A DNA stretch of 9,380 bases, taken from IMG/VR virus record IMGVR_UViG_2563366903_000014, one strand, 5' to 3'. The notes beneath the pieces are model-generated. The model saw only the letters and a list, made by a program, of their open reading frames with translations, had not been told where the DNA came from and searched no databases. The position numbers and the translations under genes were made by a program. This document shows, one piece after another, positions 748-9,380 of this stretch. Numbering within the stretch: position 1 is the first letter of the stretch; every line of letters begins with the position of its first letter. The stretch is from a virus (taxonomy: Duplodnaviria > Heunggongvirae > Uroviricota > Caudoviricetes).

Positions 748-1188
748 TCAGAACGGGATATCGTCAGGGAACAGGTCATCGTGATTATTCTGCGGTGGAT
801 GTCCCCGTGATGAGGTCTGTGCCCCTGTGTTTTGTGGCTGGCCTGTGTGTTTTCTCTGACCTCCACCAGGGCGAACAGTACGGGCACTGATTACGCTGTC
901 GGCGATAACCTGCCACCCCTGCCGCGTCTCCCCGTTCTGTCCGGTCCACTGGCTTATCTGCATGTTACCCGCCACGCTGATAAGGTCGCCTTTCTGGTGC
1001 TTCGCCAGATGGTCGGCCTGTTTACCAAAGGCTGTTACGGCAAGCCATAGAGTCGCCTGTCCGTCATCTGCGTTATGGCACGGTACGGATACCGCCATTC
1101 TCGCCAGCGTCATGTTTGTACCCTTGCTGGTCTGTTTTACCTGCGGGTCGTCCACCAGCCGCCCGTAAGCTGCAATCTGTGCTGTCAT
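748..1188 (-). CDS. ssb: Single-stranded DNA-binding protein (short phage/plasmid-type SSB)
   Basis: 146 aa; OB-fold pattern resembling E. coli SSB (IAAYGRLVDDPQV...TLWLAVTAFGKQADHLAKHQKGDLISVAGNMQISQWTGQNGETRQGW); Gly/Gln/Pro-rich linker; C-terminus ends DDIPF, the canonical SSB acidic tip. ATG at 1186-1188 overlaps stop of upstream ORF (ATGA). Confidence 0.85.
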   Translation of the reverse strand: MTAQIAAYGRLVDDPQVKQTSKGTNMTLARMAVSVPCHNADDGQATLWLAVTAFGKQADHLAKHQKGDLISVAGNMQISQWTGQNGETRQGWQVIADSVISARTVRPGGGQRKHTGQPQNTGAQTSSRGHPPQNNHDDLFPDDIPF

Positions 1189-1634
1189 GGTCTGCGCTCC
1201 TTGTTCCGGTACTCCTGGATAATATCCATTGTCATATCAAATAAATCACACGCTGCTTTTTCTGCGTCTTCTGCTTTCAGGTCATACAGCGTCATGAAAT
1301 GGTGAGTGATTGCCCGTGCGGCTCTTTTGCTGTTTGCTGCATATTGCTCATAGATTTTTTCTGCCCTATCCTCAATGTCTCGCCGGAATTCTTCACGCTC
1401 AAACAGGTCGCGGTGTATCAACACCAGCGAGTCATTCAGCCATGTCACATCGGCGTAGACTGTTCGCTTCCAGACAATCAGGATCGGGATATGATTTTCA
1501 TCGCAGTAATGCAGATGTTTTCCTGGCACTAAAAGCACTGGCCTGCCTCGTGCCGATACGAACTTCACAACAGATCCCTGTTCGGTTAAATCGATGGCGG
1601 GTGAGTGTGATTTTTTAGCGTGTTTCTCTGTCAT
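1185..1634 (-). CDS. Hypothetical protein (149 aa), translationally coupled to ssb
   Basis: ORF with GAGGAAA Shine-Dalgarno 8 nt upstream of ATG at 1632-1634; stop overlaps ssb start (ATGA). No family recognised by eye. Confidence 0.55.
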   Translation of the reverse strand: MTEKHAKKSHSPAIDLTEQGSVVKFVSARGRPVLLVPGKHLHYCDENHIPILIVWKRTVYADVTWLNDSLVLIHRDLFEREEFRRDIEDRAEKIYEQYAANSKRAARAITHHFMTLYDLKAEDAEKAACDLFDMTMDIIQEYRNKERRP

Positions 1635-1730
1635 AAAATTTTCCTCAAAGGAATAAATAAAAATTTATGCCAAAAGACTGTTCAACTGTTCATCTTTTGC
1701 TATTTCATCTTTAAATTCATGAGGTTAAAG

Positions 1731-1908
1731 GGTGAACACTTTTTGTAAAGGTGTTCACCAACTGTTCACCCTGTTCACCCGCTCGCCGTTCAAAAATCAA
1801 ACAAAAGGGTGAACAGGTGAACACTCCGGTGAATAGTTTTACAAAACTATTCACCCATTAACTTACTGATATCAAATGTATTTGTCACAGGGTGAACAGC
1901 GGTGAACA
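1731..1908. repeat. Iteron cluster: 8 perfect copies of octamer GGTGAACA/TGTTCACC (both orientations) plus a degenerate palindromic pair; putative replication origin (P4 ori/crr-like) with adjacent AT-rich stretch 1640..1730
   Basis: GGTGAACA at 1731, 1808, 1816, 1891, 1901; TGTTCACC at 1752, 1763, 1772; GGTGAATA (1828) / TATTCACC (1848) form a perfect inverted repeat around TTTTACAAAA. Lies directly downstream of the primase/helicase gene. TGTTCACC is, to my recollection, the type I iteron bound by phage P4 alpha protein. Confidence 0.75.
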
Positions 1909-1921
1909 GTTTTTCTATAAC

Positions 1922-3742
1922 TTAATTTTTATCACCCTCATTTTTCACTGGTGCACATGACGGCAGCCAGTCCTCAGACTCATCCATCAGTATCACGTTT
2001 GATCGCACACCTTCTTTCGTTCTCTTTTTCATATACTCCCTGCCATATTCCGCCATTGCGCCTGGCATATCTGCACCGAAGCGCGTCAGTGTTACGGGCT
2101 TACTGAAACCGTGCGCCCTCATATACGAGAGATAGGCGTGATAGAGATAACGGCGCGGACTGAACGGAATAATCTCAGCATTACCGACTAACAGGCCGTC
2201 ACACATTACCGACGACATGAGATAGCCGCAGAAGTCCACCAGCGAATCCCCCTCACGCTTTATTGCAAGGGCTTCTTCTGATTTCTGCTGCTCATGTAAC
2301 AGGCGTCTGGCTTCGTCCTGGTCAGAAAAGCGCGTAAGCAGATGACGAATCACTACAGCAAGCTCACCCTCTATTTTTTCCGGCAGCATCGGATCGCGCT
2401 CGTTTTCCGGTACAACCTCCGAAAAATTGAATATCACACGACGACGCGAGATCCCCCCGCTGCGGTCACTGAATGACATGGCGCTGTTGTTAACCGCCAG
2501 CACTACCGCCGGAATACGCGTTGAGTATGGCGCTTTGTGTTTCGGGTCAATTGCCACCTTGTCACCGCCCGTAATGGCCTTTATTCCTGCTCCATCACCC
2601 GCGTAGCGGGTCATATCCGGCAGAATAATCAGTGAAAAGCCAACCACTAACGCGCGTTCCCTTGCATCCTCCAGTGCCTTCATGCTTGCCGATACCGTGT
2701 TGGCCTTACCCGCCAGCATGGTACAAATCTCCGCCATAACGCTTTTACCGCTTCCACCAGGACCAGTTACCTCAATGAATAACTGCCAGTCGTACCGGTT
2801 CGCCAGCACCATAAATAACGCTGCCAGTACGCGATCCGCCTTGCGGTCATTCTCTGCCACCGAACGGCGCAACCATTTCCAGAAATTCGGCGCATGTGTT
2901 GCCAGCGTTTCACCCTCTGCTGGTGGAGTGAACGGTAACTCACTGGCAATTAACAGCCAGTCATCTTTATCGTGTTCCCGAAAATCACCTGTACGGGTAT
3001 CAAATACCCCGTTGCTGAATCCAATCAGGTGACGGGCGGTATTACCCATTACGGGTAAACTTAACTTCATTGTGTCAACTGCCGATTTAATGGCGTTTTG
3101 TGAATAGCAGATATCTTCGTCAATGAAGATTTGCGCCATTGTGCGCTGTAGCTCTTTGTCCTGCACGGGGGACCATATAACCCCGTTGTAATAGTGAACT
3201 GTGTCAGAGTCAGGGTTTATTGCCAGTTCCCCTCCGTAATGAGCAAGAAGAACCCTGCCACGCTGGCTGGCCCCCATCTGGTTAAGTGCCAGTGACGAAT
3301 CATCACCCTGTCCCCGCGCTTTTTTCTTTACAGGCAGCTCAATAACCAGCCCGTCAGAAATGTTTTTGCGTTCAATATCCAGATAGTTACGCCAGTTCTG
3401 CCGCTCGTTGTGGTGCATTCCTTCAGGGTAGTAATCAGCATCCTGTATACCTGCGGCTGCCAGCTTCTGACCGATGCCTTTGACCATCATCTGATCGAGG
3501 TGTCCGGCCTTGTATATACGCGCTGATTTGCGCCCGTCGGGCACAATTTTCAGATTGCCAATATCCTTAAGTTGTTCATCAGAAAGCACGACTGGCGGAA
3601 CATCATCACCTGCAAGTCGTCCCTCCTGCTCCTGCCACTGTTTCGCGTGCGCCCACGCATCACTGCCAGCGAAAATAATCACTTCCGTATCGGCGTGTTT
3701 TTTCCCTCGCGGCTGTTTTTTTAAGTTCGGTGCGCTTTTCAT
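1922..3742 (-). CDS. DNA primase/helicase, P4 alpha-like (phage/plasmid primase with C-terminal P-loop NTPase domain)
   Basis: 606 aa; Walker A motif GPGGSGKS in the C-terminal half; N-terminal region primase-like; start ATG overlaps stop of upstream small ORF (ATGA at 3739-3742); iterons immediately downstream. Confidence 0.88.
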   Translation of the reverse strand: MKSAPNLKKQPRGKKHADTEVIIFAGSDAWAHAKQWQEQEGRLAGDDVPPVVLSDEQLKDIGNLKIVPDGRKSARIYKAGHLDQMMVKGIGQKLAAAGIQDADYYPEGMHHNERQNWRNYLDIERKNISDGLVIELPVKKKARGQGDDSSLALNQMGASQRGRVLLAHYGGELAINPDSDTVHYYNGVIWSPVQDKELQRTMAQIFIDEDICYSQNAIKSAVDTMKLSLPVMGNTARHLIGFSNGVFDTRTGDFREHDKDDWLLIASELPFTPPAEGETLATHAPNFWKWLRRSVAENDRKADRVLAALFMVLANRYDWQLFIEVTGPGGSGKSVMAEICTMLAGKANTVSASMKALEDARERALVVGFSLIILPDMTRYAGDGAGIKAITGGDKVAIDPKHKAPYSTRIPAVVLAVNNSAMSFSDRSGGISRRRVIFNFSEVVPENERDPMLPEKIEGELAVVIRHLLTRFSDQDEARRLLHEQQKSEEALAIKREGDSLVDFCGYLMSSVMCDGLLVGNAEIIPFSPRRYLYHAYLSYMRAHGFSKPVTLTRFGADMPGAMAEYGREYMKKRTKEGVRSNVILMDESEDWLPSCAPVKNEGDKN

Positions 3743-4032
3743 TTCTTACCTCTGCTGATCGTCTTCTTCATGGCCTTAACATGCGCCTTTGCTTTGTTGT
3801 TGCTGGTTGGGCTACGACGTGGTACGGCCTGCACCAGGGAAAAATCACGCCGGAACTGACAAACAGGCATCACGCAGTCATAGTCATACCCTTCACGGCG
3901 GTAGGTGATGCGCCGTTCCCTCATGCTGATAATCATCACGATGCCGCCGTACTTATCGCGGTAAATATCCCCGCGCATAAATTCGGGTTGAGTTTTGCCA
4001 CTGGCAGTTAAGCCAGTATTTTTTGATTTCAT
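3739..4032 (-). CDS. Hypothetical small basic protein (97 aa) immediately upstream of and coupled to primase
   Basis: AGGAG Shine-Dalgarno about 10 nt upstream of ATG at 4030-4032; stop overlaps primase start. Very basic C-terminus. Function unknown. Confidence 0.5.
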   Translation of the reverse strand: MKSKNTGLTASGKTQPEFMRGDIYRDKYGGIVMIISMRERRITYRREGYDYDCVMPVCQFRRDFSLVQAVPRRSPTSNNKAKAHVKAMKKTISRGKK

Positions 4033-4293: not shown

Positions 4294-4478
4294 TACTGCA
4301 CCCCATTTATTTCATGAACGGCGTGGATAATTACGCCGGATAAACCGGCTTTAGCTGATTTGTTAATTACTGTGCTGATTGCAGCCTGGACGTTTTCGGC
4401 CTTCACGTTCTGCGTGATGCCAACGGTATAGCCGCGATTATTAACAGCACGGGAAAAGACGCGGAAGGTTTTAAGCAT
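4293..4478 (-). CDS. Hypothetical protein (61 aa)
   Basis: Strong Shine-Dalgarno AGGAGGTGA 5 nt upstream of ATG at 4476-4478; first gene of the leftward operon ending in primase. Confidence 0.55.
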   Translation of the reverse strand: MLKTFRVFSRAVNNRGYTVGITQNVKAENVQAAISTVINKSAKAGLSGVIIHAVHEINGVQ

Positions 4479-5110
4479 GAGTCACCTCCTGACGGATACG
4501 GGCGACAAAAATCAGATGTGCGTGCGGCAGCTGCGCGCGTGCTTCGCGCTCAGTGGCAGCTGTAACGGTGAATATTGCAATGCTGCCTGTCAGGCACTGC
4601 ATAAAGCGCCAGACAAAGTAAGGGCGTGCAGATACAGCCATGTGAAAGGCACCTCTGACTTTGGGATTATACCCACCGCCCAAGAGGCCAATCTTGCTGG
4701 CGGTGGACTGTACGGAATTGGCCTTACTGGTGTTAGAGGAAACCAGCCTTCCCGAAGGAAGTTCCATACAGCCCACCATTGTTGAGGTGTGCGTGTGCGC
4801 CGATACAAAAAAAGACGCTGGCGCGTCGTGTATCGCCTCTAACTCCAGCGGGAGGCCAATCCCGATCCCCGTTTTATAAGGGATAGCCTCAGTATATGCC
4901 GCTTTTTTGCTTAAGTGGTCGGATGTGTTGCGAGAAAAGTTTGTGCGAAAAATACCTGCGTTTTCTTTGAAAGCACATAATAACATCACGTTATTTATGT
5001 TTATGCAGTGTGTCGCAAAGCGACCTGAATCATCACGCAAATTACAACCATAAAAAATACCTGCGCTGTGATATGAGGTACTACAGCGCACCGCTTTACG
5101 GGTACAGACA
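4479..5110. promoter_or_regulatory. Candidate divergent control region between leftward replication operon and rightward small-ORF unit (palindromes, direct repeats, hairpins)
   Basis: 13-bp palindrome TGCCTGTCAGGCA (4584-4596); hairpin CCACCGCC...GGCGGTGG (4673-4706); GGCCAAT motif three times (4686, 4854, and inverted at 4716); hairpin GACGC-tggc-GCGTC (4814-4827) preceded by A7; 13-nt direct repeat AAAAATACCTGCG (4948-4960 and 5053-5065). Specific -35/-10 hexamers could not be assigned with confidence. Confidence 0.4.
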
Positions 5111-5290
5111 ATGACCAACGAAGAATTACAGGCAATCGCATTATCCATACTTGAGCGCCAGCGCGAAAAAGCACGCCAGAAGCGAGAGTATTTGCTTAAT
5201 CCACCTCCTCTCACCAGACCAAAACGATTTGCGCTTGAAGCATTTCTGGATAAATGCCCTCGGCGGTTAATCTCGCCTAAAAACCGATAG
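5111..5290 (+). CDS. Small basic protein, paralog A (59 aa); unknown family
   Basis: ATG 5111, TAG 5288-5290; C-terminal KRFALEAFLDKCPRRLISPKNR is paralogous to the C-terminus of the next ORF; several nucleotide differences between the two copies are synonymous in this frame (gcg/gca, ctg/ctc, cct/cca, tta/cta, aac/aat, cga/cgc). Confidence 0.4.
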   Translation: MTNEELQAIALSILERQREKARQKREYLLNPPPLTRPKRFALEAFLDKCPRRLISPKNR

Positions 5291-5386
5291 CGATCCGCTT
5301 TTGCTTCTCCGACTCCATAAAGCGAATAAAAACCATCAGCGCCGTGGTGTGAGGTACTGCGTCGCTCAGCTGTACAGGAAATAAGT

Positions 5387-5665
5387 ATGGATTTATCACC
5401 AGACGATGAGAAATTTTTACGACAACTACAACACCAACTACTCATGGATGCCATTGTCGAGCAGCAAACAAAGAGCAGCCCGATAGATTCATCGCTGAAT
5501 AAAAAGGCCGCCTCCCGTTTTATTGAAAACAGGATAAGGCGCGGAAAAACATGTGACGACGAGTCAAAGGCATCGCATACAAGAGATAAAAAATTTGCAC
5601 TTGAAGAGTTTCTCAGGAAATACCCACGGCGGCTAAAAGCAACCAAAAATCGCCCGCCAGGCTGA
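5387..5665 (+). CDS. Small basic protein, paralog B (92 aa); unknown family
   Basis: AGGAAA SD 6 nt upstream of ATG 5387; C-terminal KKFALEEFLRKYPRRLKATKNR matches paralog A; conserved upstream leader motif GTG-TGAGGTACT shared with paralog A; intrinsic terminator downstream. Confidence 0.5.
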   Translation: MDLSPDDEKFLRQLQHQLLMDAIVEQQTKSSPIDSSLNKKAASRFIENRIRRGKTCDDESKASHTRDKKFALEEFLRKYPRRLKATKNRPPG

Positions 5666-5731
5666 TAGCATTGTCCACCAGCTACACTCATGGCATAGTT
5701 GGTGATGCGCTTGATTTCCTTTATCTCCACT

Positions 5732-5762
5732 GGCGACCCTTCCATGGTCGCCTTTGTTTTGC
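5732..5762 (+). terminator. Rho-independent terminator for the rightward small-ORF unit
   Basis: Perfect 7-bp GC-rich stem GGCGACC / GGTCGCC (5732-5738 / 5746-5752) with 7-nt loop, followed by TTTGTTTTG on the plus strand; sits between convergent genes. Confidence 0.55.
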
Positions 5763-5765
5763 CTG

Positions 5766-5978
5766 TCATTCCTGCATCATGCGGATATTCGCGCCGTACA
5801 GGGCCGCCAGCGCGATAATTTGATAAAACCTCCCCAAGTATTGCTTAACGTGTTTCATGCGCTCAGCGGCGAAATGGCTCACGATATGGCGCATGTAATC
5901 AGCATGGTTGATGTTCAGTAGTGCGAACTTATCCGCCGTGTCGATGTACCGGACGGCAGGTTTGAGGATGTCAGGCAT
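5766..5978 (-). CDS. Hypothetical protein (about 70 aa), last gene of the alpA-rha operon
   Basis: ATG at 5976-5978 lies 2 nt upstream of the rha stop codon (ATGCCTGA); alternative GTG start at 5984. Confidence 0.45.
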   Translation of the reverse strand: MPDILKPAVRYIDTADKFALLNINHADYMRHIVSHFAAERMKHVKQYLGRFYQIIALAALYGANIRMMQE

Positions 5979-6708
5979 GTTCACGTTCTCCCAGGCGACG
6001 GGCCAGCCAGCGTTGGGCTAATTCGGTGAGACGTTCTTTACGTTCTGGCGTTGGCATATCCATATCCAGTAGCGCACAGTTACGGCTTTCCAGATACGCG
6101 AGCAACGCCAGTTGATCAGCGGTTATATGGTCACGAACTTTTTTTGATGGGATGCCGTTTTTTTTGGCCCATACAGGCGGGTGCATCCCTAATACAAGGC
6201 GCGCAATGAAAGTACATTCGTTGTTATAAGCATGACCGTGTTGAGTGTCTCCAGTACGCTCTATGTATCCCTTCATGGCATCCCCCATAGAGCGCATCTC
6301 AGCTTTGGCCTCACATCTCTCTGCTATCCAGTTAGCCATGCGGTTAAACTGCGCAATGTATGCCTCTTTGAATGCAGCCGCTTTTTTTCCGGTAAATCCC
6401 ATTGTTAAAAACACGAAGCCGTCTTTGGTGACTTCGTAGGCTCTCAATACGCGCCCCTTATGCTCAAATTTAACCCGCCGAAAATTGCGGGTTAAAAATT
6501 CAGCAGAACAACACAGGTTTTCAATCCGGTTAACAACCTTATCGTGATCCTTTCTGAAAAATCGGGCGATAGCCTGTGAAGTGGTTACAGGCTCACCGCC
6601 AGAAGGAAACACTTCCGGCGCAGTGAGTGCATTTTTATTTATTCCGTCAGCAATAATCTCATTGCCGGAAATTACCGAAATAATTGCGGCGAAATCATAA
6701 TTACGCAT
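5971..6708 (-). CDS. rha: Rha-family phage regulatory protein (antirepressor-like)
   Basis: 245 aa; N-terminal region carries the Rha signature (VTTSQAIARFFRKDHDKVVNRIENL ... DGFVFLTMGFTGKKAAAFKEAYIAQFNRM); start overlaps the upstream gene by 8 nt. Confidence 0.82.
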   Translation of the reverse strand: MRNYDFAAIISVISGNEIIADGINKNALTAPEVFPSGGEPVTTSQAIARFFRKDHDKVVNRIENLCCSAEFLTRNFRRVKFEHKGRVLRAYEVTKDGFVFLTMGFTGKKAAAFKEAYIAQFNRMANWIAERCEAKAEMRSMGDAMKGYIERTGDTQHGHAYNNECTFIARLVLGMHPPVWAKKNGIPSKKVRDHITADQLALLAYLESRNCALLDMDMPTPERKERLTELAQRWLARRLGEREHA

Positions 6709-7216
6709 GATTCACCCCCAGAGACGGCGCTGACGTCATCAGGCTGGCGAACGTCTCCATGCGGCGAGCAACTTCCCGCACCGCTTCGGTCGGTGTCATG
6801 CCGTTCTGTATCGCCTCGTTAAAAGCCGATATCCCGATTTCTTGTACAACTGACAACAAATGAAAGCGGTGTTTTGTTTCGTCCTGCTTGAGGTGGCGCA
6901 TATGTTCTGGGTTACGACCGCGAACAATGCGTAACAAGTAATCATGTTGCATTTCATTCAGCATATAGCGCATTTCTGGGCGACCGCGCTTATGGCCTGA
7001 TTTCAGACTATAGCGAGGCAATGCTCCCAGATCGCGTAACTGCTGCTGATGTTTTTTGATCGTCGCGCAAAGACTTTCGTGTTGTATTCCTGCTCGCTCA
7101 GAAATAACGCGGGAATCAATACGCGACTCTGCTTTGTGGCGAATCAATATATCGTTCTGGTTGATTTCAGGCTGAACGAAGCCCTGCCCCTGTACGGGCA
7201 TATTCGGACGTTTCAT
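6701..7216 (-). CDS. Hypothetical protein (171 aa), possible helix-turn-helix DNA-binding protein
   Basis: AGGAG SD 7 nt upstream of ATG 7214-7216; segment ISERAGIQHESLCATIKKH has HTH character; overlaps rha start. Function not recognised. Confidence 0.6.
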   Translation of the reverse strand: MKRPNMPVQGQGFVQPEINQNDILIRHKAESRIDSRVISERAGIQHESLCATIKKHQQQLRDLGALPRYSLKSGHKRGRPEMRYMLNEMQHDYLLRIVRGRNPEHMRHLKQDETKHRFHLLSVVQEIGISAFNEAIQNGMTPTEAVREVARRMETFASLMTSAPSLGVNHA

Positions 7217-7280: not shown

Positions 7281-7484
7281 TTACGCGGCGTTGTTGCGAG
7301 AAGCATCAATACGCTGGTTAATCCATTCGTCGACTTCACTTTCAATAAAAGCCACGGAGCGGGGACCAATTTTTACCGGTTTAGGGAAGCGCCCCAGGCT
7401 GATCAGGCGATAAATCCATGCGCGACCGTAACCAGTACGGCGCATAACCTCAGAAAGACGGATGAATGAATTGTTATTAGCCAT
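7281..7484 (-). CDS. alpA: AlpA/Vis-family transcriptional regulator (prophage CP4-57 regulatory protein family)
   Basis: 67 aa; IRLSEVMRRTGYGRAWIYRLISLGRFPKPVKIGPRSVAFIESEVDEWINQRI resembles E. coli AlpA; AAGGAG SD 8 nt upstream of ATG 7482-7484. Confidence 0.85.
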   Translation of the reverse strand: MANNNSFIRLSEVMRRTGYGRAWIYRLISLGRFPKPVKIGPRSVAFIESEVDEWINQRIDASRNNAA

Positions 7485-8126: not shown

Positions 8127-9341
8127 TTATGCACATACACTAAACTTGCCGTGCACCACGTTTCCGCCCTGTTCCAGTGAGTCCATATAGTCGGCGTACC
8201 ACTGGAGCATCTCCCGCCGTCCGTCCAGATATTGCGCGTGATTGTATGTGCCACGGATCGAGTTTTTATCGACGTGCGCCAGCTGCGTTTCTATCCACGC
8301 GGAGTTATAACCCTGCTCATGCAAAATTGTACTCATGGTATGCCGGAACCCATGACCAGTAACGCGCCCAGCATAGCCAATACGACGAATAAGCACGTTC
8401 ATCGCCATTTCACTCATCGGTTTACTGTGCTGTATTCGACCAGGGAAAATAAACGGATACTGCCCCGTCATGTGTTTCAGTTGTTCCAGAATAGCAATCG
8501 CCTGTTCTGAAAGCGGCACGCAATGAGGACGGCGCATTTTCATTCGTTCTTTCGGCACTTCCCACAGACGATTATCAAAATCAATCTCCTGCCACTCTGC
8601 CTGCCGCAATTCACCCGGACGGAGTCCTGTAAGAATCAACAATCGCATACCCAGCTTGACGATCTGGCTTCCGGTGTACGTATTAAAAACGCGGAAAAAT
8701 TCCGGTAGCTCATCAACTTTCAGATACGCGTAATGCTCTTTTTTGTGTGGTGCAAATGCGCTTGCCAGATCAGGAGCGGGGTTATATTCAGCGCGTCCGG
8801 TAATTATTGCGTACCGAAACACTTCGCCACATCGCTGGCGAACCTTACGCAATTTTTCAGTTGCGCCACGGTCATTAAGACGGGATAGAACCGCGAGCAA
8901 TTCCATCGGCTTAATCTCTGCGATGGGCCTACCTCCAATGTACGGAAAAACGTCTTTTTCAAACGTCTCTATCATTTCCTCTGCATATGAGGGAGACCAT
9001 CGGTCCAGGCGTTTTTCATACCACTCACGGGCGATCACCTCAAAGGTGTTACCGCATTTGTTCGCCTGTTCTCGCTTTTGGGCCTTTCTGACCTCACTCG
9101 GATTAACTCCACCAGCGATAAGCCTTTTGGCTTCATCCCTTGCCGTCCTGGCATCAGAAAGGGACACCTCAGGATAGACACCCAGCGACAACATTTTGGG
9201 CTTGCCTGCAAACCTGTATCGCAATCGCCAGCCCTTCGAACCGTTCGGCTCAATGAGTAACGAAAGCCCGTTGCCGTCATTGAGTGTATAGGCTTTCTCT
9301 TTTGGCTTCGCGCGGCGGATAGCAAGGTCTGAAAGCAACAT
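8127..9341 (-). CDS. int: Tyrosine recombinase / P4-family integrase
   Basis: N-terminus MLLSDLAIRRAKPKEKAYTLNDGNGLSLLIEPNGSKGWRLRY matches the P4/CP4-57 integrase N-terminal pattern; C-terminal catalytic motifs HGFRHT and RGTYNHAQY. ORF is open to the window edge (alternative ATG at 9378-9380), so the true start may be 9341 or lie further upstream. Confidence 0.88.
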   Translation of the reverse strand: MLLSDLAIRRAKPKEKAYTLNDGNGLSLLIEPNGSKGWRLRYRFAGKPKMLSLGVYPEVSLSDARTARDEAKRLIAGGVNPSEVRKAQKREQANKCGNTFEVIAREWYEKRLDRWSPSYAEEMIETFEKDVFPYIGGRPIAEIKPMELLAVLSRLNDRGATEKLRKVRQRCGEVFRYAIITGRAEYNPAPDLASAFAPHKKEHYAYLKVDELPEFFRVFNTYTGSQIVKLGMRLLILTGLRPGELRQAEWQEIDFDNRLWEVPKERMKMRRPHCVPLSEQAIAILEQLKHMTGQYPFIFPGRIQHSKPMSEMAMNVLIRRIGYAGRVTGHGFRHTMSTILHEQGYNSAWIETQLAHVDKNSIRGTYNHAQYLDGRREMLQWYADYMDSLEQGGNVVHGKFSVCA

Positions 9342-9380
9342 GTGTATAGCCCCCAAAAAACGATTTTGTCCTATACGCAT

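Follow-up and report, generated by a model that had tools for sequence, protein, structure and literature searches.

Gram-negative phage-inducible chromosomal islands (PICIs) have their replication origin directly 3′ of the initiator gene, where sets of short repeats, the iterons, flank an AT-rich region (PMC6092414). In one such island, EcCICFT073, a segment with pri and ori drives plasmid replication, which is lost when either ori or pri is deleted (Fillol-Salom et al. 2018, PMC6092414). A PICI primase with its ori has been used as a conditional replicon in engineered non-replicating DNA payloads (PMC11338833). P4-like satellites carry another set of genes, namely int, psu, delta, sid and alpA as well as epsilon and alpha (PMC8628076), and the reference sequence of P4 itself (NC_001609, whose annotation is the source of the P4 iteron and crr labels used here) has 8-bp ‘ori type 1 repeats’ both in its origin and in crr, a region required in cis and located directly 3′ of the alpha gene. 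The DNA considered here is the 9380-bp stretch of IMG/VR virus record IMGVR_UViG_2563366903_000014, below called the window, which extends from the start codon of an integrase gene at one end to the interior of an island at the other. From its sequence, the intergenic region at 1635-1921 is very probably the vegetative replication origin of a Gram-negative PICI and a compact version of the P4 system. Origins of this kind, in this position and with this function, have already been described for PICIs and P4.

Exact search of the window finds eight perfect copies of the octamer TGTTCACC/GGTGAACA, all within the 178 bp from 1731 to 1908, three on the plus strand (starting at 1752, 1763 and 1772) and five on the minus strand (1731, 1808, 1816, 1891 and 1901). 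Only 0.28 copies are expected, and eight are not reached in any of 200 dinucleotide shuffles, which rules out a chance origin of the cluster. Four further octamers with one mismatch bring the total in the gap to twelve, with start-to-start spacings of 8, 44, 21, 11, 9, 36, 8, 12, 20, 43 and 10 bp, and the 11 one-mismatch octamers outside the gap are near chance (7.7 expected at up to one mismatch for the whole window). The gap is bounded by the stop codon of a gene for a 606-aa protein, pri-rep, and by the ATG of a 149-aa open reading frame (ORF), both read from the minus strand, and the last iteron is 13 bp from the pri-rep stop codon. Two head-to-head pairs of octamers form palindromes with 13-nt arms, the one at 1731-1743/1747-1759 being 92% complementary with a 3-nt gap and that at 1828-1840/1843-1855 being 100% complementary with a 2-nt gap; the inverted pair matching the latter is shared by P4 ori1 and every aligned relative. 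Neither DnaA boxes nor, above chance, P4 type II repeats are found in the origin region.

An earlier sequence-only reading of this DNA had proposed a P4-alpha-type origin because of eight perfect iterons in both orientations in under 200 bp, directly downstream of the 606-aa gene and beside an AT-rich stretch. All of these observations hold, the AT-rich stretch having a GC content of 25-32% across 1620-1740. That reading had also matched the octamer with the type I iteron of P4 ori1 and crr and had proposed comparison with those sites. The match is exact, as a scan of NC_001609 finds six perfect copies of TGTTCACC in ori1 (9310-9413) and five in crr, and the comparison, when run, reveals an origin layout that is homologous beyond the octamers. 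With the likeness of the initiators, the conservation of the iterons and their co-variation with the protein, all described below, the proposal is supported.

The right half of the region is collinear with P4 ori1. Both have three same-strand iterons, an inverted fourth, CCnTTAACTTACTG, an AT-rich gap (the 43-bp spacing) and then two more iterons; in the window these are the iterons at 1808(−), 1816(−), 1828(−) and 1848(+), then CCATTAACTTACTG, the AT-rich spacer and the iterons at 1891(−) and 1901(−). The six are alike in order and orientation, and their spacings are 8, 12, 20, 43 and 10 bp versus 10, 11, 22, 43 and 10 bp in P4. The local alignment score is 73, compared with 16.4 ± 2.6 for shuffles. 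The left half resembles the P4 crr repeat, with which it has in common an A/T tract (1655-1672), two adjacent direct iterons (the degenerate ones at 1679(+) and 1687(+)), a T-rich spacer and an inverted iteron (1731(−)), after which come the iterons at 1752(+), 1763(+) and 1772(+); here the score is 46 versus 17.4 ± 2.8 for shuffles (z about 10). Both scores exceed those of all 500 dinucleotide shuffles, and for ori1 as for crr the observed score is reached by none of 1000 controls in which the iterons were fixed and the spacers shuffled. Cross-comparison of the ori1-like part with crr, and of the crr-like part with ori1, stays near background. This supports the view that the region represents, at the level of sequence, both P4 cis sites joined, and so more than a patch of iterons.

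The arrangement nevertheless differs from that of P4 in several respects. The two P4 cis sites are ~4.7 kb apart on the linear map, which on the circular genome is the shorter distance, whereas in the window the two modules are side by side and both within 260 bp. P4 crr is a duplicated 120-bp unit and the window has a single crr-like unit, and the three type II repeats of the P4 origin have no counterpart in the region. In P4 a terminator, t-alpha, is annotated in the interval from alpha to crr (4604-4628 of record L001), while a promoter and terminator scan of the window found neither an intrinsic terminator nor a terminator-like hairpin separating pri-rep from the iterons, so that transcripts of the island operon probably pass through the origin.

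The product of pri-rep, Pri-Rep, has matches above the cut-offs to the Pfam families D5_N, DUF5906 (the core of a superfamily 3, SF3, helicase) and Pox_D5 C-terminal domain, and one to TIGR01613 (the C-terminal domain of P4-family primases) that at 97.6 bits is under its cut-off of 108.7. Its residues 149-596 are 50% identical to residues 323-771 of P4 alpha, and the match of its C-terminal domain to the solved P4 origin-binding domain has an E-value of 9.9e-24. The N-terminal part is another matter. P4 alpha has a primase domain at residues 1-322, in place of which the window protein has an unrelated domain of 148 aa that does not align with alpha and has no family match in Pfam or NCBIfam, so the N-terminal DnaG-type primase domain of an alpha-type initiator is not present. 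An AlphaFold model built from 26 sequences is confident (mean per-residue confidence, pLDDT, of 82) and its fold is weakly TOPRIM-like, but by eye, from the model and alignment A3, the positions of the TOPRIM glutamate and DxD appear to read AGSD and AGHLD and the usual acidic motifs are not visible. Near-identical versions of the domain are found in other E. coli proteins fused either to a RepA/AAA_25-type helicase or to a third and different C-terminal module, putatively taken to be of DUF927 type from the annotation ‘DUF927 domain-containing protein’ in related islands; such fusions mark the domain as a mobile module.

The description of this protein as a primase/helicase in the sequence-only reading is therefore half right: the P4-alpha-type SF3 helicase and origin-binding domain are there and the P4 primase domain is not. 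The term ‘primase’ is inherited from the name of the family and, for the 606-aa protein, unproven. The accompanying claim that the origin assigns the replication chemistry of the element likewise holds only in part. P4 replication in vitro needs alpha, single-stranded DNA-binding protein (SSB), gyrase and Pol III, and is not known to need DnaA, DnaB, DnaC or DnaG. With the alpha primase domain missing, independence of these four proteins is doubtful at the window origin, and host DnaG may be needed there.

Of 5426 complete E. coli genomes, 738 have the origin region, and it is annotated in none of them. In vB_KppS-Ant (LR881103), the primase of which is 72% identical over its full length, there are eight perfect octamers, and nine are present in an E. 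coli H1 island at tRNA-Gly; in the corresponding records (16.5 kb, L002, and 31.8 kb, L003) none lies outside the stretch immediately 3′ of the gene. An island of E. coli 83972 (L079), with a protein 86% identical, has seven, again 3′ of the gene. A wider scan, restricted to one genome per species, returned 75 loci. Those from 12 representative genomes (two of Raoultella, four of Pectobacterium, and one each of Pluralibacter, Kluyvera, Citrobacter, Klebsiella, Rahnella and Enterobacter) have three to eight perfect octamers within 700 bp downstream of the gene and almost none elsewhere. When 14 origins are aligned, the majority base accounts for 92.5% in the columns of the window's twelve iterons versus 72.5% in other intergenic columns (Mann-Whitney p=1e-15). 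That iteron columns are so much better conserved than spacers across genera points to continuing selection. A locus of Erwinia rhapontici (L020) has an alpha-like gene with 55% identity and its TGTTCACC clusters are ~4.3 kb upstream of the 3′ end of the gene and ~2.2 kb downstream of it, with none in the 700 bp just downstream of the gene; judged by sequence this split layout is more like that of P4 than a compact PICI origin.

Not all relatives have the same octamer. In the same origin layout TGTCTACC is found in Escherichia ruysiae, Kluyvera georgiana and Enterobacter, TGTCCGCC in two Serratia, TGTCCACC in Serratia oryzae, TCTCTACC in Symbiopectobacterium and TGTGCACC in Proteus, and TATCTACC is a further variant (loci L007, L012, L015, L017-L019, L040, L042, L056, L060 and L081). 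Each goes with its own version of a segment of 14-19 residues in the binding domain. At the variant loci the segment, which follows the third helix, is 26-37% identical to that of the window while the rest of the domain is 71-77% identical, and the variant proteins have a five-residue insertion in the part matching aa 570-583; the segment of the Escherichia ruysiae homologue is of the type KRAKCTKGPDKGRVITN. P4, at 47% identity elsewhere in the binding domain, yet retains both the K-x-x-T-K-x-G pattern and the same octamer. From general winged-helix topology (PMC2777425), the segment is probably the wing. The pattern is as expected if aa 570-583 read the middle of the octamer, and it is the strongest evidence from sequence alone that the adjacent protein binds the repeats, keeping in mind that the loci are related by descent and so cannot be counted as independent events.

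EcCICFT073, located in the CFT073 genome for comparison, has the same gene order as the window (int, alpA, DUF4222, pri-rep, ori, small ORF, SSB), and its Pri-Rep and that of the window share 48% identity from end to end, N-terminal domain included (594 aligned residues). Its ori is collinear with that of the window, with three iterons first, then a fourth that is inverted, a motif containing TTAA, an AT spacer and finally two iterons, but its octamer is TGTCTACC/TATCTACC instead of TGTTCACC, and the co-varying segment reads TRKVKGVTQTN where that of the window reads KKRTKEGVRSN. The window has the PICI origin layout also in that 1856-1890 is AT-rich and between iteron sets and that the ori is immediately 3′ of pri-rep. 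The same iteron layout is present in vB_KppS-Ant, a small induced element that encodes its own capsid, portal and terminase; there the origin is followed by capsid-formation genes, in the window by the small ORF, SSB and, in related E. coli islands, ProQ/FinO and PerC regulators. The Gram-positive PICIs, SaPIs among them, follow the same logic with their Pri and Rep proteins (origin immediately 3′ of the initiator gene, iterons on either side of an AT-rich stretch, and an SF3-type helicase that loads itself), and the helicase core of SaPI5 Rep (PDB 7OLA) is distantly similar to that of the window protein (E=2e-10). However, their iterons and DNA-binding domain are unrelated to those of the window, the host phylum differs and any homology is much more distant. 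In full-text literature the octamer matched only unrelated primer sequences, and it is absent from the supplements of PMC6092414.

We infer Pri-Rep binding, helicase loading, the site of melting and the source of primers, and the course of events may be pictured as follows. The island genes would be switched on, in the studied relative via AlpA after helper-phage induction, and the 606-aa Pri-Rep would be made from the gene just upstream of the origin. Its C-terminal winged-helix domain would bind the twelve TGTTCACC-type octamers, including the two head-to-head pairs, and the SF3 helicase, thus concentrated on the DNA, would assemble and open an AT-rich tract, either that between the iteron sets (1856-1890) or that at 1906-1935, after which host polymerase would copy the excised circle. 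The least stable duplex stretches of the locus are 1646-1675, 1856-1885 and 1906-1935. In the spacer between the iteron sets the free energy (dG) of 25-mers is -26 to -28 kcal/mol, versus a window mean of -33.6, and the 25-mers that start at 1908-1910 (about -24.0) belong to the 25 least stable of the whole window; an A-rich tract also comes after P4 ori1. The tract at 1640-1675, to which the sequence-only reading had drawn attention, coincides in part with the downstream gene's ribosome-binding site and leader, and also with the opening A/T tract of the crr-like unit. It aligns with the A6T8 tract that opens each P4 crr repeat, and a ATAAAATTAAAAAATAT-like tract is kept in other genera.

Other roles for the octamers have to be weighed. 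They could be chiefly operators through which Pri-Rep controls downstream transcription or read-through (149-aa ORF, SSB), or copy number by pairing of origins, with no part in initiation. It counts for this that the cluster is directly upstream of the ribosome-binding site of the next gene, that there is one weak sigma-70-like match (minus strand, 1875-1846), and that iteron-binding initiators, as in iteron plasmids, commonly also autoregulate. However, one promoter-like match in the region is not above the 0.8 expected by chance, the downstream genes vary among relatives while the iteron layout is constant, and the homologous DNA is the origin in both P4 and EcCICFT073. An exclusive operator function is thus unlikely; a regulatory side-role is compatible with origin function and does not replace it.

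It is very unlikely that the region serves solely as a replication enhancer of the crr kind, with true initiation at a separate iteron cluster outside the window, even though it holds the position of P4 crr directly 3′ of an alpha-like gene, its left half resembles the crr repeat and in the Erwinia relative iteron clusters are found well away from the gene in both directions. Collinearity of the right half is with P4 ori1 and not with crr, and neither the window (9.4 kb) nor the vB_KppS-Ant record (16.5 kb) nor the E. coli locus (31.8 kb) has a second iteron cluster; on these two grounds the enhancer-only interpretation is rejected, and the EcCICFT073 pri gene with the adjacent region alone is a replicon (PMC6092414). 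A fossil origin, no longer used in a defective island, is hardly credible, for though there is a group II intron fragment with an ORF-less AT-rich stretch at the left end and many related E. coli islands carry pseudogenes (SSB, Icd-like, ProQ/FinO), the 606-aa frame is unbroken and none of its domains is missing, eight of the octamers are perfect and the iteron columns have kept their much higher conservation.

Several points nevertheless weigh against a functional origin at 1635-1921. Four of its twelve octamers are degenerate, among them both copies of one palindrome, and three AT-rich tracts are candidates for the melting site. Part of the conservation of the region may have other causes, namely the translation signals of the next gene and through-transcription. 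The island may also be partly decayed, as the intron fragment at its left end suggests, in which case an intact-looking origin need not be active.

A functional origin here fixes the replication start site of the island and the protein responsible, both needed to define a minimal replicon, and leaves the current understanding of how such origins work unchanged. It means that the iteron used in a widespread class of E. coli islands is that of phage P4 itself, which links two satellite families kept separate in the literature and makes replication cross-talk between them possible. For specialists some interest may attach to the homology of a PICI origin with P4 ori1 and crr in cis, to a shared iteron that would permit such cross-talk, and to the apparent specificity segment. 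Variants of initiator and iteron could supply orthogonal conditional replicons of the kind used in PMC11338833.

These strands can be combined in a bolder proposal, tentative and somewhat on the doubtful side, in which P4 and this PICI subgroup have replicons with homology both in cis and in trans, P4 alpha and Pri-Rep recognize each other's sites, and the specificity segment is swappable. The identical octamer and the kept K-x-x-T-K-x-G pattern are the reason for thinking that alpha and Pri-Rep may recognize each other's origins. If so, the compact PICI origin and the split P4 origin would be two forms of one ancestral site, and cross-activation or incompatibility might arise between satellites that exploit different helper phages. 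The 14-19-residue segment would be a swappable reader of the three central bases of the octamer, and TGTTCACC, TGTCTACC, TGTCCGCC, TGTCCACC, TCTCTACC and TGTGCACC, each with its initiator, would be natural orthogonal initiator/origin pairs.

Table 1. Features of the origin region and of the surrounding island, in window coordinates
Feature	Position	Strand	Basis or remark
Intergenic origin region (ori)	1635-1921 (287 bp)		ORF map; holds all 12 octamers
ori1-like core	1806-1912	+	Collinear with P4 ori1 9308-9418
crr-like unit	1655-1780	+	Aligns with each 120-bp P4 crr repeat
Degenerate iteron	1679	+	TGTTCAAC
Degenerate iteron	1687	+	TGTTCATC
Degenerate iteron	1828	-	TATTCACC
Degenerate iteron	1848	+	TATTCACC
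Head-to-head iteron palindrome, GGTGAACACTTTT-TGT-AAAGGTGTTCACC	1731-1759		Inverted repeat I11
Head-to-head iteron palindrome, GGTGAATAGTTTT-AC-AAAACTATTCACC	1828-1855		Inverted repeat I9
AT-rich tract of the sequence-only reading	1640-1675		GC 16-24%
AT-rich spacer between iteron sets, candidate DNA-unwinding site	1856-1890		GC 24-32%
Least stable duplex of the locus, across the pri-rep stop; alternative unwinding site	1906-1935		dG of 25-mers
pri-rep gene, 606-aa initiator	1922-3742	-	TOPRIM-like N-terminus, D5_N, SF3 helicase, winged-helix origin-binding domain
N-terminal domain, aa 1-148, in place of the P4 alpha primase domain	3299-3742	-	No alignment with alpha
Origin-binding domain, aa 498-594	1961-2251	-	phmmer match to PDB 1KA8
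Candidate specificity segment, aa 570-583, YMKKRTKEGVRSNV	1994-2035	-	Co-varies with iteron sequence
Island-encoded SSB	748-1188	-	Pfam SSB, E=6e-17
149-aa ORF directly downstream of the origin	1185-1634	-	ORF list
DUF4222 gene	3739-4032	-	Overlaps pri-rep start by 4 bp
432-aa ORF, Ash/Icd-like region	4471-5769	-	Sole family match: Ash, residues 292-378
Rha-family (Phage_pRha) gene	5971-6708	-	
Rha-family (Phage_pRha) gene	6701-7216	-	
alpA (PICI activator family)	7281-7484	-	Pfam Phage_AlpA, E=2e-20
Tyrosine integrase, arm-binding domain	8127-9380	-	Pfam Arm-DNA-bind_3, Phage_int_M, Phage_integrase

The gene content of the window (int, alpA, pri-rep, ori and SSB) identifies the element, as far as sequence comparison goes, as a Gram-negative PICI and not a P4-like satellite; int, alpA and pri-rep are all on the minus strand and so in one orientation, and the gene organization is the one that Fillol-Salom et al. 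(PMC6092414) give for such islands. Neither psu, delta nor sid is found among the window ORFs or in related complete islands, which rules out membership of the P4-like satellites as defined in PMC8628076, and with these the window has in common only int, alpA, an Ash-family match and the alpha-like helicase. Related E. coli islands adjoin tRNA-Gly, yicC/rph or roxA. The order of ori, small ORF and SSB recurs in EcCICFT073 and other islands, and the 149-aa ORF has no family match in Pfam or NCBIfam and a marginal PHROG match. The position of the DUF4222 gene is conserved in EcCICFT073, E. coli 83972 and JNEC-KY176. Its protein has no sequence similarity to that of P4 ORF106, which holds the same relative position and which we take to be the copy-number regulator Cnr.

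At the left end, just downstream of the SSB gene, the minus strand at 570-723 matches the Rfam group II intron D1-D4 model over its full length (67 bits), possibly as an intron fragment or as an insertion in the island interior. Positions 1-570 are AT-rich, translation of the three minus-strand frames shows no long ORF there, and E. coli homology to the window begins only at about 866-880. At the other side of pri-rep the two adjacent Rha-family genes overlap by a few bases, and in related islands genes for AntA/AntB antirepressors are at that position. The 432-aa ORF, at whose place related islands have annotated Icd-like genes, is probably over-called at its 5′ end. Inside it, on the minus strand, Rfam matches above the gathering score are a C4 antisense RNA at 4696-4783 (73.8 bits) and the Hfq-binding RNA isrK at 4808-4884 (52.1 bits), and the whole looks like a module in the style of the c4-icd-ant arrangement of P1 and P7.

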